This document shows, piece after piece, positions 1 through 62,431 of a DNA stretch of 64,000 nt; position 1 is the stretch's first letter, and each line of letters opens with the position of its first letter. The position numbers and the translations under genes are program-made. The stretch comes from a virus: the IMG/VR virus record IMGVR_UViG_3300045051_000172, positions 55,479 through 119,478 of that record, one strand, 5' to 3'. Below the pieces are notes generated by a model. It did no database searches and was not told the DNA's origin. It was given only the letters and a program-made list of their open reading frames with translations.

Positions 1-188
1 CCGACTTTGATTGAAAATCCCGTCACTTTTCTCCAGTTCCATCCGAGCACTCCCCCAACTAACATGCATAAAAGTGTTCTAGTTCCAGAGGGTTGCATCA
101 AGTTGTTGATAACCATTCCCGTCAAAAGACATGCAATTGTCAACGATGCGAAGTGTGATAGTCCGTGAAGAAATCCATTTTGCTTCAT
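1..188 (-). CDS. Small hydrophobic (membrane) protein, truncated at the window edge
   Basis: Hand translation from ATG at 188: MKQNGFLHGLSHFASLTIACLLTGMVINNLMQPSGTRTLLCMLVGGVLGWNWRKV...; a promoter lies just upstream. Confidence 0.6.
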   Translation of the reverse strand, partial: MKQNGFLHGLSHFASLTIACLLTGMVINNLMQPSGTRTLLCMLVGGVLGWNWRKVTGFSIKV

Positions 189-194
189 GCATTC

Positions 195-223
195 AGGTTA
201 ATGCACTTGATTCTTTTTGTCAA
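195..223 (-). promoter_or_regulatory. Sigma70-type promoter (leftward)
   Basis: TTGACA-17 bp-TAACCT on the minus strand, upstream of the ATG at 188. Confidence 0.6.
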
Positions 224-235
224 TCGGGGTATTCT
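207..235 (+). promoter_or_regulatory. Sigma70-type promoter (rightward) overlapping the leftward one and firing into a non-coding region
   Basis: TTGATT(207-212)-17 bp-TATTCT(230-235). Confidence 0.6.
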
Positions 236-240
236 AAAAA

Positions 241-600
241 AGTTCGGTGCCTTGGGACTAGGTGCGAATCCTAGCTTGCCTCATGAGGTGAAAACATTGT
301 GAGGTACTGGTACAGGCGAATAGCTTGTGCTGAGGAACTAACCAAGAGGCACGTTAAATACTTTCTACCGCAGTTGACTACTGTGCGGTTAGAAGTACGC
401 TCCAATGAGGTAACTCAAAGGAGTAGAATAGGCGAAGAGCTGATTGGTTCCATATCCTCAGTGTTAAGGGCTTTACTCTTAGGAACATATTTCCCTAAGA
501 TCCTAGACATCAGTTCCCAAACTTATGAAGTAATTTCATGAGGTTAGGGAGCTTTTGTCTTTAAGGCTAGTAAACCTAAGCGGGACCAAGGGACACCACA
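241..600 (+). ncRNA. Candidate large structured ncRNA with a tRNA-like (T-arm/D-arm) core
   Basis: No credible ORF; own promoter; many hand-paired helices: 258-274 (T-arm-like), 358-397, 406-417 (GUAA tetraloop), 421-427/472-478, 477-500, 512-553, and end pairing 246-255/586-597. Confidence 0.6.
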
Positions 601-661
601 TGATAAATCGAAGGGTTGGAAGTTAGAGTTTACTGATGCGTCGGGCCATAGTGTCAAAATC

Positions 662-820
662 CTAACGGGACACACTTTCAAGAATGTGGGCTAGTCTCCA
701 AGCATTCAGATTCTTCCGATTGATCCTCTTTTTGATTTCTTTCTTCACCCGAGCCAGGGTGACTTCTTTTAAAGTAATCTTTAATTTCTTTGCGAAATAA
801 TATTTAGATTCAAGAGTCAT
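662..820 (-). CDS. Small basic hypothetical protein (52 aa)
   Basis: Hand translation MTLESKYYFAKKLKITLKEVTLARVKKEIKKRINRKNLNAWRLAHILESVSR; start overlaps the stop of 817..1080. Confidence 0.55.
   Translation of the reverse strand: MTLESKYYFAKKLKITLKEVTLARVKKEIKKRINRKNLNAWRLAHILESVSR
745..770 (+). terminator. Possible intrinsic terminator for the rightward ncRNA transcript
   Basis: TCACCC-GAGCCA-GGGTGA followed by CTTCTTTT; it lies inside the antisense ORF so may be incidental. Confidence 0.35.
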
Positions 821-8042: not shown

Positions 8043-8615
8043 ATGCAAGTAGAATACAAATTAAAATTGGGTCAAGAAGAATTCACTCTTAAGACGGAAG
8101 TCCAAAACGAGATCGAATTTTTCCAAAAGATGGCTTTCTATTCAGGTCTTCCAAAGACTGGTCCGAATGGAGAGAATGACCTTAAGCTCGTTCACAGAAC
8201 TACCAAGAAAGGCGATTACTACTCAATCGTTTCAGTTTCGGCTGGACAAGAGTATCGTCTCGGAATTTTAAAAGAAGGCGGCCTCTTTCCTAAAGGTTGG
8301 GCTCCCATCTACGGCACAAGCGAAGACGCAGAAGAAACTGCTACGTCTACGGCTCAAGCCACAGTAGCCTCGGTTGAAACTCAAATTGCCGCCGCTACCG
8401 CAGCTCCAAAGGCTGCAGCCGCAACTGCGACTGCCGCTCCGAAAGCAGCAGCTCCCGCAGCCGCTGCACCTAAGGCCGCACCAGCCCAGCGTTCAACGGC
8501 AGACATCATTAATCAGTATGCCGTCGGAAACACCGCAACTAAACCCGCAGCAGCCTCGGCGGCCCCCGCAACCGCCCCAGCAACTGGAAATGTGAACTCA
8601 CTACTTAGGAGATAA
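8043..8615 (+). CDS. Hypothetical protein with an Ala/Pro/Lys-rich linker
   Basis: Globular N-terminus then AAPKAA repeats; GGAG SD. Confidence 0.75.
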   Translation: MQVEYKLKLGQEEFTLKTEVQNEIEFFQKMAFYSGLPKTGPNGENDLKLVHRTTKKGDYYSIVSVSAGQEYRLGILKEGGLFPKGWAPIYGTSEDAEETATSTAQATVASVETQIAAATAAPKAAAATATAAPKAAAPAAAAPKAAPAQRSTADIINQYAVGNTATKPAAASAAPATAPATGNVNSLLRR

Positions 8616-8617
8616 AT

Positions 8618-8920
8618 ATGTCAGATCAAGCTCAACCCAAAAAACGTATCCGAAAGATCGCAAGCGTTTGTTTGTCCGATAAGGCCAATCAAGATGGCTC
8701 GCCAAATCTGTACCTGAAAATCAATGATTATCCAGGGCAGCTTCTCTTTGTGGATAAAGAGACTCAACAAGTTTACGTCGTAAAGACGGCAAGTATTCGA
8801 AAGCCTTATAACGACAATGCTCCAGCATTTGTTCAACAGGAATTGACGATTAATCTGGACAATCCTAAGAGTGCGGAACTCTTGTCTCAGACTAAAGCGG
8901 ACACTGCTGCTAGTGAGTGA
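8618..8920 (+). CDS. Hypothetical protein
   Basis: 100 aa ORF with AGGAG SD. Confidence 0.7.
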   Translation: MSDQAQPKKRIRKIASVCLSDKANQDGSPNLYLKINDYPGQLLFVDKETQQVYVVKTASIRKPYNDNAPAFVQQELTINLDNPKSAELLSQTKADTAASE

Positions 8921-34422: not shown

Positions 34423-35856
34423 ATGGATAGTCTTAATCAACTACCCCAAGATCTTACTGGCTTTGGTGCTGCTAATGCTCAAGAAATCGAACAACTTCAA
34501 AAAGCGTTGTCAATCGGTTCTGAATATGCTACGCAAACCCCTGGGACATTAACCCAAGGTGCTGCGCTTGCTGTTGAAGACCTTGACCGTACTTTGAAAC
34601 TCGTTACCCACAGCATGGAACACATCAAGCTTTGGAAAGATATTGGTAAAGAAAAAGTGAGCCAAACGGTTCATGAATTTAACGTGCAAAACAGCTATGG
34701 AAATGAAGTTCCCGTATTTTTTCAAATGGGCGGAACTCCATCTTCAACCGATGCTAAATATGCTCGCGATGTCGCGATTGTAAAGTATCTTGGAACCCAA
34801 GGACAAGTTCAACACAACTTGACCCTTATCCAAGCCGCTCACGGTCCCGTTATCGCTCGCGAAGTCAAGAACAAGACGATTGAACTCTTGTCGCGTAATG
34901 AACGCGCCATGTTCAGCGCTGATTCTTCGATCAACTCGCTTGAGTATGATGGTATCGAAGCTCAAATCGCTTCAAAAGAAGGTCAAGCTAAGTACAAATC
35001 GACTGCTTTCGCAGGATATGATGGTCTCGGCGTTGACGATTCCGTATTTATCGACATGCGAAGCCGTGACGATATCTTGGATGAAGACTCTTGTGAAGAA
35101 GCCTGCTTGAGAGCAGTGAATAACTTTGGTATGCCAATGGATATGTACTTGGCCACCGACGTTCACTCTGATTTCAGCCGCGCTTTCTACGCAAAGCAAG
35201 TTACTCGTCCTGGAGATCGATCTGCTGCTGGTTACTTGGTTCCTGAATTCGTTGGAACTTTGAATTTCCGATTCAAAGCTAACTTGTTCAACCGAGCCCG
35301 CAAATCGCCTCTCGCTTCTGCGGTTTCTGCTTCTGCAGCTCCCACTCTCGCTTCGCCACTCAGCCCTGCTGACGCGGCTTCCGAGTTTGCTTCTGACGAC
35401 GCTGGTACCTATGGCTACAAGATTTCTGCAGTATATTCGGATGGCGAAACCCTTCCGTCTTCTGAGTCTTCTTTGGCTGTTGCCGCTGGCGACAAAGTAA
35501 CGCTTGCAATCACCTACTCAGGCTCGCCTGTTTACTTGAATGCATTCCGTTCTGCGAAAGATGCTGCTGGTTCTAATTGGCAATTCATTGGTCGAATCGC
35601 ACCTGCTGGTTCGGGCAATGCTCATAACGTCGATTACAACAAAAAGCTTCCTGGACGCAGTTCAGCTTTCTTACTTATGCATGATCCGGATGCGCTTGTT
35701 TTCAAGCAACTCGGCTCTATGATTAAGTATGACTTGGCTGTTACTGACACTTCGTACAAATGGTTACAACTGTTGTACGGAATGGTCGTTATCCAAGCTC
35801 CTCGTAAACACATTATTCTTGAGAATATTGCGTTGTCGAGAGATGTTTCGGCTTAA
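34423..35856 (+). CDS. Major capsid protein (SPO1/K/A511-like)
   Basis: KALSIG..GAALAVEDLDRTLKLVT..LWKDI..TVHEF pattern resembling Herelleviridae capsids; position; strong terminator after. Confidence 0.88.
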   Translation: MDSLNQLPQDLTGFGAANAQEIEQLQKALSIGSEYATQTPGTLTQGAALAVEDLDRTLKLVTHSMEHIKLWKDIGKEKVSQTVHEFNVQNSYGNEVPVFFQMGGTPSSTDAKYARDVAIVKYLGTQGQVQHNLTLIQAAHGPVIAREVKNKTIELLSRNERAMFSADSSINSLEYDGIEAQIASKEGQAKYKSTAFAGYDGLGVDDSVFIDMRSRDDILDEDSCEEACLRAVNNFGMPMDMYLATDVHSDFSRAFYAKQVTRPGDRSAAGYLVPEFVGTLNFRFKANLFNRARKSPLASAVSASAAPTLASPLSPADAASEFASDDAGTYGYKISAVYSDGETLPSSESSLAVAAGDKVTLAITYSGSPVYLNAFRSAKDAAGSNWQFIGRIAPAGSGNAHNVDYNKKLPGRSSAFLLMHDPDALVFKQLGSMIKYDLAVTDTSYKWLQLLYGMVVIQAPRKHIILENIALSRDVSA

Positions 35857-35886
35857 TTCTAAACCTCAGTAAGTCCTGAGTAAGAG

Positions 35887-35924
35887 AGGCTCCTAGGTGA
35901 AAACTTAGGGGCCTTTTCTTTTTT
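35887..35924 (+). terminator. Intrinsic terminator after the capsid gene
   Basis: AGGCTCCTAG-loop-TTAGGGGCCT followed by a T tract. Confidence 0.85.
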
Positions 35925-35977
35925 GTGCGAAAGAAAATAAATCCAATGATATACTGTAGTTAGAAAGAGGTGTTTAT

Positions 35978-36319
35978 ATGGGGATTTCACAATTTTTAAT
36001 CAATTTAGCGAATCAAGCCGACCCTAGAGATAAGGTTTCGGGCGAAATTCTTCTTATTTCGGAAATGATGAAGATTATGGCGGGAGATCAGTCTCTTGCT
36101 TTGGATCATTTCATTTCCAAAGCTCAAGCGGAAAGCGACGATGAAACTTATAATTTCTTGTCGAATATCAAATCTGCTTGCGAAGAATTAAGCGAGAAGC
36201 AAGATGGAGCCTTTGTTCCTGGAACTCCAGCGAACTGGGCAGTTGCTCCTACTAGCGTTCAAGAAGCTATCGATATGTTGGCTGAGAAAGTATCCGACGG
36301 CGGAGTTGATCCTGTCTAA
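35978..36319 (+). CDS. Probable virion protein
   Basis: 113 aa; C-terminal PANWAVAPTSVQEAIDMLA motif; TGa-TATACT promoter at 35947. Confidence 0.6.
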   Translation: MGISQFLINLANQADPRDKVSGEILLISEMMKIMAGDQSLALDHFISKAQAESDDETYNFLSNIKSACEELSEKQDGAFVPGTPANWAVAPTSVQEAIDMLAEKVSDGGVDPV

Positions 36320-61566: not shown

Positions 61567-61803
61567 TTACTCTCCTAATCCTGCGACTCGGTTGGCCGCG
61601 ATAGTGTTGACGGTTGCGTACACAATCGAATGAAACTTGGTAGTGCCCCAGCGATAGTCTTTAGAGAATCTGAAGCCCGTGACGTAAAGCACGGGAGAGA
61701 TTGCCACGCCTAAAGCGGTCTTCGCTAAATAGGCCCAATCTTCGGGGGTCTTTAGATATTCACTTGCGATCTTAAGTTCTAGTTTGGCTTGCGTTAAGTT
61801 CAT
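61567..61803 (-). CDS. Hypothetical protein, first gene after the sigma-54 site
   Basis: 78 aa ORF. Confidence 0.6.
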   Translation of the reverse strand: MNLTQAKLELKIASEYLKTPEDWAYLAKTALGVAISPVLYVTGFRFSKDYRWGTTKFHSIVYATVNTIAANRVAGLGE

Positions 61804-61814
61804 GCCCTTAGTTA

Positions 61815-61830
61815 TGCAAAGCTCGTGCCA
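61815..61830 (-). promoter_or_regulatory. Sigma-54 (RpoN) -24/-12 promoter
   Basis: TGGCAC-GAGCT-TTGCA matches the TGGCACR-N4-TTGCW consensus. Confidence 0.75.
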
Positions 61831-61857
61831 AGCGCCCAGTCACATGAGGTTACACCC

Positions 61858-61877
61858 TAACTAATCGAATTCATTGA
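61858..61877. promoter_or_regulatory. IHF-like site
   Basis: TAACTAATCGAATTCATTGA; 16/20 identical to 38174-38193; two mismatches to YAANNNNTTGATW. Confidence 0.45.
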
Positions 61878-61911
61878 GAACTTAAGTTTTGCCTAAATTT
61901 TCGTCACATGA

Positions 61912-62046
61912 ATTGTGACAAAAAATGTCCCAATATTTCGTTATTAGTTCGAATCCGAATGCAGTTTAGTGCGCATTCGTGAGTGATTCTCATTGATTAG
62001 GAATTGGGACAATTTGCGCGCTATTTGGGACAAAAAATGTCCCAAT
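61912..62046. promoter_or_regulatory. Palindromic operator/enhancer-like sites
   Basis: ATTGTGACA-AAAAA-TGTCCCAAT (61912-61934), TTGGGACA-AAAAA-TGTCCCAA (62025-62045), half-site at 62002. Confidence 0.7.
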
Positions 62047-62054
62047 TCAGGCCA

Positions 62055-62087
62055 AATAAAAAGCCCCGGCTGGGAGTTCGCCGGGGC
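62055..62087 (-). terminator. Intrinsic terminator (minus strand)
   Basis: GCCCCGGC-loop-GCCGGGGC followed by TTTTTATTT on the minus strand. Confidence 0.85.
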
Positions 62088-62119
62088 AGTATGGGGTATT
62101 AGGGAGACAACTTTAAAAT

Positions 62120-62431
62120 CTATTTAGCGCGCATTAGGCGGGCCTTGGCTTCATTCAAGGCGCTTCCTGGGGCCGTAACTGATCCCTGCTCATATAAGCT
62201 CAATGCATAGGCTAAATTTCCAAACTTGACGCCTTGCTTCATTCCATCGTCAACGGTTTCCTTAGCGGCGCTTCCGAGCACTTCGACTGTGTCTAACAGG
62301 GCCAAAATCTCATTGACCACAACTTCGGCTTTCTCAAAATTCTTTCCAGTAAAGAGCATGGTGCTCTGATTCACTTCTTTCAAGTTCTTTCTCGCGGCTT
62401 CTAGTTTGCTTCTGATCTCTTGTGCTTTCAT
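62120..62431 (-). CDS. Hypothetical protein
   Basis: 103 aa; GGAG SD and TTGACT-16-TAAACT promoter-like element upstream. Confidence 0.65.
   Translation of the reverse strand: MKAQEIRSKLEAARKNLKEVNQSTMLFTGKNFEKAEVVVNEILALLDTVEVLGSAAKETVDDGMKQGVKFGNLAYALSLYEQGSVTAPGSALNEAKARLMRAK

Follow-up and report, generated by a model that had tools for sequence, protein, structure and literature searches.

Does an unusually long intergenic gap in the genome of a soil phage encode a structured RNA of its own, and if so, what kind of RNA is it? The locus belongs to a 119,478-bp phage record of IMG/VR (IMGVR_UViG_3300045051_000172; rated complete by CheckV), whose bases 55,479-119,478 make up the window, i.e. 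the whole 64,000-nucleotide stretch of DNA analysed here; all positions below are those of the window. A first-pass annotation had proposed that the gap between two minus-strand genes holds a promoter-driven, densely structured non-coding RNA (ncRNA) of ~350-530 nt and of no recognisable class. Our analysis favours, with some confidence, a genuine structured ncRNA of no catalogued kind, expressed as a stand-alone unit from its own promoter and encoded on the + strand at about 241-600. The unclassified phage ncRNA of the annotation withstood comparison with Rfam, an assessment of coding and the variation in a relative, but its 530-nt form with a terminator did not.

The gap and its genomic setting

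The phage is an uncultured soil phage. Its sequence was found in rhizosphere metagenomes by a k-mer search of public runs. According to Pfam and PHROG matches, it encodes a GroEL-type chaperonin, a T5 A1-like DNA transfer protein, a primase-helicase and a DNA polymerase, together with a terminase, a portal protein and a major head protein that is ~33% identical to the head proteins of Bacillus Herelleviridae. About half of the phage genes carry an upstream Shine-Dalgarno motif. No tRNA or tmRNA gene was detected by ARAGORN in the whole 119-kb record, searches of the phage genome for RVT_1, Cas12f1-like_TNB and TROVE gave no match while the controls were positive, and the small proteins encoded around the locus matched no informative Pfam or PHROG family.

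The genome is as tightly packed as the first-pass annotation had described, with a coding fraction of 93% by simple ORF cover, and the gap at 189-661 is its second largest. Only one code-11 ORF of at least 60 aa (299-541) touches the gap, and no long frame appears in it when TGA is read as W or TAG as Q. The RNA is the lone rightward unit within a leftward gene block and lies inside a broad GC-skew trough (44-65 kb). Features of the locus are collected in Table 1.

Table 1. Predicted and observed features at the RNA locus, in window positions; p, pairing probability.
Feature	Position	Strand	Basis or remark
70-aa gene (5' part; full gene at window -24..188)	1..188	-	ORF; divergent partner of the RNA
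Left copy of 36-nt direct repeat (72% identity)	183..218	.	Borderline significance
Putative leftward promoter, TTGACA (223-218)-17-TAACCT (200-195)	195..223	-	Sequence reading; missed by the scan tool
Putative rightward RNA promoter, TTGATT (207-212)-17-TATTCT (230-235)	207..235	+	Sequence reading
Structured RNA core	246..597	+	Closed by terminal helix 246-255/586-597 (p ~0.9, ViennaRNA)
T-arm-like hairpin, 5-bp stem CUAGG/CCUAG, 7-nt loop UGCGAAU	258..274	+	Local and DNA-parameter folds
9-bp hairpin, G-C and U-A cap, GAAA tetraloop 290-293	278..305	+	p = 0.96
9-bp hairpin, loop GAAUA	309..331	+	p = 0.83
Central domain, stacked stem with tandem G-A/G-A internal loop 346-347/442-443	329..462	+	p = 0.65-0.99
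Hairpin 477-483/494-500 with 10-nt loop and short basal stem	467..504	+	ViennaRNA; p = 0.91
Long irregular hairpin, ~20 bp, loop GUAAU	505..560	+	p = 0.92-1.0
3' trailer common to X3	598..658	+	Homology to X3 stops at 658
Right copy of 36-nt direct repeat	696..731	.	Both copies bracket the RNA module
Terminator-like hairpin in minus-strand ORF 662-820	745..770	+	Outside the block conserved in X3

A strand-specific fold

The + strand of 235-620 folds with a minimum free energy (MFE) of -132.9 kcal/mol (z = -5.27, none of 100 shuffles being as good), while the minus strand of the same region reaches z = -2.90 against shuffles. After GC correction, the MFE of 241-600 (z = -4.9) lies beyond all 1,324 genome windows of 360 nt on both strands, a comparison that slightly favours the target in that 241-600 is optimally placed and the grid windows are not. 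The remaining gaps of the genome fold unremarkably, save one palindrome-rich region. No significant structure was found in 598-790 (z = -1.1 against shuffles), and thus the folded domain is taken to be 246-597.

The strand asymmetry arises because 16 of the 114 predicted pairs are G-U, which become A-C mismatches when read on the opposite strand, and these pairs argue for a + strand RNA over a DNA cruciform. They therefore bear on a different reading of the locus, very unlikely in our judgement, in which it would act as DNA, either as a MITE-like insertion bounded by the inverted repeats 246-255/586-597 or as a site for recombination or replication in the divergent control region close to the genes for helicase and primase. 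Such an element would suit the inverted-repeat ends, the 36-nt direct repeats around the module, the plasticity of a region that is absent from relatives, its position in the skew trough and the above-chance folds obtained with DNA parameters (z = -3.6 and -2.4). Against these stand a predicted structure with several branches instead of a rod, the presence of just one copy in the genome with none further found in searches of IMG/VR, JGI, GTDB or INPHARED, and the lack of iterons and of an AT-rich unwinding element. A replication origin at the skew minimum was rejected, as the minimum lies ~8 kb from the RNA locus; a MITE-like repeat was rejected on the copy number and on the lack of any duplication at the helix ends.

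Nearly all of the helices drawn by hand in the first-pass annotation were reproduced by ViennaRNA, mostly with p > 0.9. The strands of one of them (421-427/472-478) are complementary, yet this helix is outcompeted by 399-403/420-424 in the MFE fold. The central domain bears an interrupted 12-bp hairpin at 359-397 with an 11-nt loop (helices 359-364/392-397 and 367-372/384-389 in ViennaRNA) and, at 399-424, a hairpin with a GUAA tetraloop on the helix 406-409/414-417 (p = 0.99). The long hairpin further 3' combines the helices 512-518/547-553 and 522-529/535-542 (p = 0.92-1.0).

Near the 5' end, U263-G-C-G-A267 of the hairpin at 258-274 matches the T-loop pentaloop pattern, a match of sequence and not of three-dimensional geometry. 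A T-loop is a pentaloop in which U at position 1 and A at position 5 form a reverse Hoogsteen pair (PMC4810234). This hairpin is a local optimum and is present in the DNA-parameter fold too; the unconstrained MFE fold has 258-263/574-583 and 271-277/564-570 in its place, for a gain of only 2 kcal/mol.

One relative and its pattern of substitution

Three of the public runs contain the sequence. One of them, X1, possibly the source sample, gave no contig, and X2 gave only identical fragments; the informative run, X3, gave a 907-nt contig that aligns to 4-658 of the window with ~90% identity, 63 differences and 8 gap positions, and whose flanks are unlike those of our phage on both sides. X3 is the only relative found, so that public data contain two alleles. 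Its differences are listed in order up to 453, and 16 more fall beyond that position. Twenty changes are located in 54-150, within the 70-aa gene (~20%), 12 of them on its third codon positions, and ten more are located in 196-228. The 208 nt of 246-453 also carry ten changes (4.8%), and this part of the RNA is ~four times more conserved than the adjacent gene.

Six of the ten substitutions in 246-453 are at unpaired positions, though paired bases make up 65% of the region. A260U and U272A form a double compensatory change (A-U to U-A) in hairpin 258-274, where G266A also retains a purine at loop position 4. G278A converts a G-U into an A-U pair in hairpin 278-305, the changes at 318 and 322 are both in the loop of hairpin 309-331, and those at 373, 451 and 453 of the central domain are unpaired. 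In the model that includes the T-type hairpin, the sole pair broken in 246-453 is an A-U pair of the GUAA hairpin (A408U). Random placement of ten substitutions broke 5.2 pairs on average and at most one pair in 0.8% of trials (P = 0.008), a value that is post hoc in that this model was chosen after inspection of the variant; with the plain MFE fold, three or fewer broken pairs occurred in 13% of trials (P = 0.13), which is not significant. None of the three indels from 246 onwards disrupts a predicted helix: a 1-nt deletion at 472 and an insertion after 483 are both in loops of 467-504, and a deletion at 605 is past the core. The fourth indel, a 5-nt deletion at 242, is just ahead of the terminal helix. 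Internal twin repeats (314-325/430-441 and 281-289/536-544) were considered and set aside, being not significant and showing no co-variation in X3.

Overall, the X3 substitutions in 246-453 appear to respect the predicted structure, and we take the P value of 0.008 as moderate support. Since the covariation rests on a single variant, the claim of an ncRNA is weaker than the first-pass annotation implied. The high conservation could in principle stem from recent lateral transfer of the segment instead of selection. It is also conceivable that the locus has no function and is random or degenerating sequence with a fortuitously good fold, as might be expected of an orphan with a single relative and no family; we rank this below the DNA-level reading, given that the fold is the most extreme in the genome, that conservation exceeds that of a neighbouring gene by the factor given above and that the hexamers of both promoters are preserved.

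Coding potential of ORF 299-541

ORF 299-541 (80 aa) has a GTG start with GAGGUG 8 nt upstream and is called as a gene in the public record. The least probable of the explanations that we considered is that this ORF is the functional product, carried on an unusually structured mRNA. The Shine-Dalgarno-like bases on which such a gene would depend are sequestered in the 278-305 hairpin, and structure reaches well past the ORF at both ends. Three of the six X3 substitutions inside the ORF are synonymous, and the frame survives the -1/+1 indels at 472/483, which would suit a gene; the wobble sites of the ORF, however, diverge by only ~4% (3 changes), compared with ~37% in the 70-aa gene. This conservation of wobble sites indicates that the conservation of the gap is not due to protein-level selection. 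Similarly, the codon score of the ORF (-0.09) is close to the median of shadow ORFs (-0.06) and not to that of small genes (+0.10). The ORF showed no Pfam or PHROG match, and its product matched only itself among 5.8e9 protein clusters. With codon usage in the shadow-ORF range and wobble sites as conserved as the rest, frame 299-541 shows none of the coding signature that would have counted against the RNA of the first-pass annotation.

Putative promoters and the 3' end

The promoter that had been proposed to drive the RNA has recognisable hexamers and spacing, but it agrees with the consensus at 8 of 12 positions and falls under the threshold of the scan tool. None of the ten X3 substitutions in 196-228 hits either hexamer, despite a local divergence of 30%. 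A start 7 nt past the -10 would be at ~242, four bases ahead of the terminal helix. The putative leftward promoter overlaps the rightward one by 17 bp; in X3 its -35 is unchanged and its -10 becomes TAAGAT. As read from the sequence, this overlap suggests that occupation of one promoter would exclude the other. The ATG of the 70-aa gene is at 188, 7 nt beyond the leftward -10, and is not preceded by a Shine-Dalgarno sequence, which suggests that the mRNA may be leaderless.

A 530-nt RNA that ends at 745-770, as proposed earlier, is not supported: predicted structure stops at 597, homology to X3 stops at 658, and 598-790 folds like its shuffled versions. A hairpin at 745-762 does exist, one such site being found where 1.6 are expected from shuffles, and the 745-770 hairpin is probably not part of the RNA element. 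No convincing terminator for the RNA was found by the terminator scan or in the fold of 598-790, and the scan did not detect any minus-strand terminator in the gap.

These observations bear on the foremost of the alternatives, itself unlikely, that the locus serves the leftward operon in cis or as antisense and not as a trans-acting RNA. The folded region or its rightward transcription would then serve, between ORF 662-820 and the 70-aa gene, for insulation, for processing or for interference through convergent transcription. This alternative would account for a sole rightward unit in a leftward block with no minus-strand terminator in the gap, and read-through past 662 would be antisense to ORF 662-820, which holds the 745-762 hairpin. 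However, the fold belongs to the + strand and does not extend beyond 246-597, X3 keeps the RNA while the downstream leftward gene is replaced, and a conserved promoter of its own seems to serve the 70-aa gene. Further, an insulator needs no ~350 nt of sequence-level selection with T-loop and GNRA features. A stand-alone RNA remains our preferred reading.

Homologue searches and a proposed two-gene cassette

Neither BLAST nor nhmmer revealed the RNA in nine related phage records, three of them complete genomes; the searches were nhmmer and blastn against the GroEL-anchored relatives (L002-L008) and BLAST of the whole records G001-G010. In addition, blastn against 50,697 phage records gave no real homologue. 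A single-sequence covariance model of 329-462 (R1) returned only its self-match when run on eight related records, three named bacterial genomes and 151 Bacilli genomes. Pattern scans were equally unproductive. In IMG/VR, the T-loop hairpin pattern had at least 117 matches, all due to chance according to nhmmer, the R/Y-coded GAAA hairpin and the combination of T-loop and GAAA loop had none, and the junction pair pattern had four, which were coding and due to chance. In the JGI metagenomes, an exact 19-mer had no match, and a two-loop pattern with K allowed at one position had at least 119, mostly tRNA T-arms and none homologous. A pattern scan of GTDB genomes had 70 matches, all of them chance. 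Soil sequences with GGUGCAAAUCC, which may be cobalamin-type arms, also surfaced in the JGI two-loop scan. No related loci were found for the 136-aa neighbour protein, and the gaps of relatives at the equivalent place contain no comparable structured RNA. This lack of homologues in relatives and collections suggests that the element may be young or dispensable.

At the six loci of related phages that could be read, the genes for helicase and GroEL lie near each other in divergent orientation and enclose no more than two small ORFs, whereas several kb of small genes and the RNA separate them in this phage. Relatives that do not contain the RNA, together with the unlike flanks of X3, point to an accessory, laterally shuffled element. 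As X3 shares only 4-658, the conserved unit appears to comprise the 70-aa gene, the control region and the RNA; the leftward gene downstream of the RNA is replaced in X3. The 70-aa gene has a codon score of +0.09, in the range of real genes, and its product probably contains two hydrophobic, membrane-spanning segments, as read by eye; the protein has no relative other than itself in 5.8e9 protein clusters. The direct repeats at 183-218/696-731 are outside the conserved RNA.

Comparison with known RNA classes

A cmscan of the whole window against Rfam 15 (4,227 models) gave no match at the gathering threshold. At E <= 10, with relaxed filters, there was one 13-nt chance match (604-616) in 1-1200 and none in 238-605 (368-nt query). 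Thus, the RNA retains the unclassified status given to it earlier, and the Rfam models, ARAGORN runs and motif checks agree with the reported absence of RNase P, group I and tmRNA signatures. ARAGORN did not detect a tRNA or tmRNA at default settings; only at a 60% threshold did it make a spurious 'permuted' call with 'Tag not identified', and none of the three + frames ends in AA followed by a stop, on which grounds tmRNA was rejected. A tRNA-like acceptor pairing (276-281/314-319) is disfavoured by the X3 changes at 278 and 318. A group I intron was rejected on the lack of + strand exons and of an RF00028 match and on the pairing of the RNA ends with each other; the DNA upstream of the RNA belongs to a minus-strand gene whose substitutions follow a wobble-site pattern.

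RNase P RNA is disfavoured, as the P4 strand GAGGAAAGUCC and other conserved regions are absent and RF00010, RF00011 and RF00373 do not match. A cobalamin riboswitch was rejected for want of a model match at E <= 10, a B12 box and a + strand gene downstream. ROOL and GOLLD were dismissed since neither model matches and the 119-kb record has no tRNA gene, and retron msr-msd, omega RNA and Y RNA since no RT, TnpB-type or TROVE protein was detected in the genome. Similarly, a type I toxin-antitoxin antitoxin was rejected, there being no direct repeat of at least 11 nt shared by the RNA core and the region of the 70-aa gene. The energy of a duplex between the RNA and the 70-aa mRNA is weaker than that of most shuffled controls, and the longest complementarity to potential antisense targets in the phage genome is 12 nt, i.e. 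chance level. This lack of complementarity beyond chance to the partner mRNA or to phage transcripts speaks against antisense pairing and against action as a type I antitoxin.

That the RNA is a strongly diverged representative of a known class missed by Rfam, such as an RNase P-like RNA, a cobalamin-type T-loop aptamer or a group I-like ribozyme, is highly improbable, and this reading ranks ahead only of a protein gene. The length of ~350 nt and the closing helix that pairs the ends resemble RNase P RNA. GAGGAA at 332-337, which resembles the beginning of the P4 motif, is the sole P4-like stretch, and a hand reading allows a 7-bp pairing 337-343/565-571 that would be placed like P4, before the 3' strands of the outer helices; it contains one A-C mismatch and competes with other helices. 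Unlike in RNase P, two hairpins occupy the place of P3, the layout of the specificity domain is not seen and the order of elements differs. With respect to cobalamin riboswitches, the RNA shares GGGA followed by a short hairpin with a UGCGAAU loop, an arm that we take to be near-identical to that of E. coli btuB; this RNA is much larger, and the likeness is one of a single structural motif. No model of any such class scores at E <= 10, neither a full P4 motif nor a B12 box is present, and the RNA has neither a downstream gene on the + strand nor an exon context.

Broader likenesses are to ROOL and GOLLD, large 'ornate' RNAs that are associated with phages and prophages and whose function is not known, and also to raiA and OLE. 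Like them, this RNA is stand-alone, phage-borne, several hundred nucleotides long and composed of multiple helices; its GNRA loops and T-loop-like hairpin suggest a compact tertiary fold, and it shows neither a coding role nor an evident target in cis. ROOL and GOLLD are roughly 580 and 800 nt in length. In contrast, the present RNA is smaller (~350 nt), matches none of their Rfam models, has no tRNA neighbours and is known from two alleles only. The comparison with tmRNA, GOLLD and ROOL in the first-pass annotation is no more than an analogy. The pairs tisB/istR-1, shoB/ohsC and zorO/orzO likewise combine a small hydrophobic membrane protein with a divergent, co-inherited ncRNA. Compared with the type I antitoxin sRNAs, this RNA is several times larger and more structured, and shows no complementarity above chance.

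A possible mode of action and its implications

In the model that we favour, a host promoter of the sigma-70/sigma-A type (TTGATT-17-TATTCT) would start the RNA 4-5 nt ahead of the terminal helix. The body of the RNA, closed by this helix, would comprise three hairpins on the 5' side, two on the 3' side and a branched central domain between them. Long-range contacts made by the T-loop-type hairpin and the two GNRA tetraloops (GAAA and GUAA) may compact it. The closing helix, these loop motifs and the equal conservation of sequence at paired and unpaired positions are typical of RNAs that work through a defined three-dimensional shape, and suggest an RNA of the scaffold, decoy, aptamer or ribozyme type. 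It would act in trans by binding a protein, a ligand or its own copies, as a scaffold, a decoy or possibly a ribozyme. Expression is presumably early, given the place of the RNA among small leftward genes beside the replication module. The RNA gene and the divergent, possibly leaderless gene of the 70-aa membrane protein would be inherited as a cassette, a two-gene accessory unit, in which a polymerase at one of the overlapping promoters would block the other.

More tentatively, and with less confidence than we attach to the existence of the RNA, it might be the founder of a new class: a compact phage RNA with tertiary structure, possibly catalytic, ligand-binding or self-assembling, moving between soil phages in a two-gene cassette with a leaderless small membrane protein and under a switch between RNA and protein formed by the overlapping, mutually exclusive promoters.

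To our knowledge, uncatalogued large structured RNAs recur in uncultured phages, and almost none of them has a known function. The present case is unusually clean, in that a single small gene with its own putative promoter shows conservation above that of a neighbouring protein gene. The T-loop-type hairpin and the two GNRA tetraloops are motifs typical of RNAs with defined three-dimensional shapes, and the RNA is small enough for direct structural work by chemical probing and cryo-EM as well as for self-cleavage, oligomerisation and pull-down tests. If real, it would add an example from a soil phage to these RNAs, and one apparently tied to a small membrane protein.

Features of the whole genome

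The 119-kb phage genome carries genes for a GroEL homologue and for a protein resembling T5 A1, and the whole record contains no tRNA genes. Throughout the record there is no sign of recoding, since all three stop codons are employed (TAA 98 times, TGA 54 and TAG 16).

Other folds, palindromes and a candidate small RNA

At -152.8 kcal/mol per 360 nt, the strongest raw fold of the genome lies in a GC-rich patch (local GC 0.58 vs 0.43), just upstream of the primase-helicase gene. The cumulative GC-skew minimum, at about genome position 64 kb, coincides with this fold, which is possibly origin-related. Among the grid windows (360 nt, both strands), the second most extreme fold after GC correction had a z of -4.2.

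A gene-free region of 316 bp folds strongly on both strands (z of -4.8 and -6.5). The palindrome TTGGGACA-AAAAA-TGTCCCAA occurs in it at least three times, in this or a closely similar form, at intervals of about 90-112 bp. Rfam gave only sub-threshold matches in this region. The array resembles a group of repressor or operator sites.

In L003, a contig of a related phage, a GC-rich stretch of about 270 nt without an ORF has a promoter of the TTGACA type on one side and, on the other, a clean intrinsic terminator (GGCUCAGUC-UUCG-GACUGGGCC, followed by a U-run). Its fold z is only -1.7, and it has no sequence similarity to the structured RNA of the window. This stretch is a candidate small RNA, separate from that of the window.

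Positions of the features (window coordinates unless stated)
Feature	Position	Strand	Location
Strongest raw fold	8243-8780	minus	within ORFs 8043-8615 and 8618-8920
Second GC-corrected fold	35600-36140	+	spans the major head gene's 3' end and the intergenic space after it
Palindrome-rich gap	61800-62120		
Candidate small RNA	L003:838-1138		
Start region of the 70-aa gene	186-223	minus	
Direct repeat, left copy	183-218		
Direct repeat, right copy	696-731		
Helicase-GroEL interval	genome 52611-58976		

The RNA module and its surroundings

The 70-aa membrane-protein gene, the predicted divergent partner of the RNA, is preceded by a putative promoter with a perfect TTGACA -35, a 17-nt spacer and a weak -10. 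Its ATG lies exactly 7 nt past this -10, with no Shine-Dalgarno sequence before it in the start region, and from its sequence the gene is apparently leaderless. A 36-nt direct repeat (26/36 identical) encloses the RNA module with its two copies, the left one of which covers this start codon and the promoter region. This pair may be a recombination scar left by insertion of the cassette (the 70-aa gene, control region and RNA).

In related phages (L002-L005, L334, L335), the DEAD/ResIII helicase and GroEL genes are close divergent neighbours, and the gap of about 110-500 bp between them holds no more than two small ORFs. In the present genome, the same interval holds about a dozen small ORFs, together with the RNA. 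The helicase-GroEL interval is a hot spot for accessory genes.
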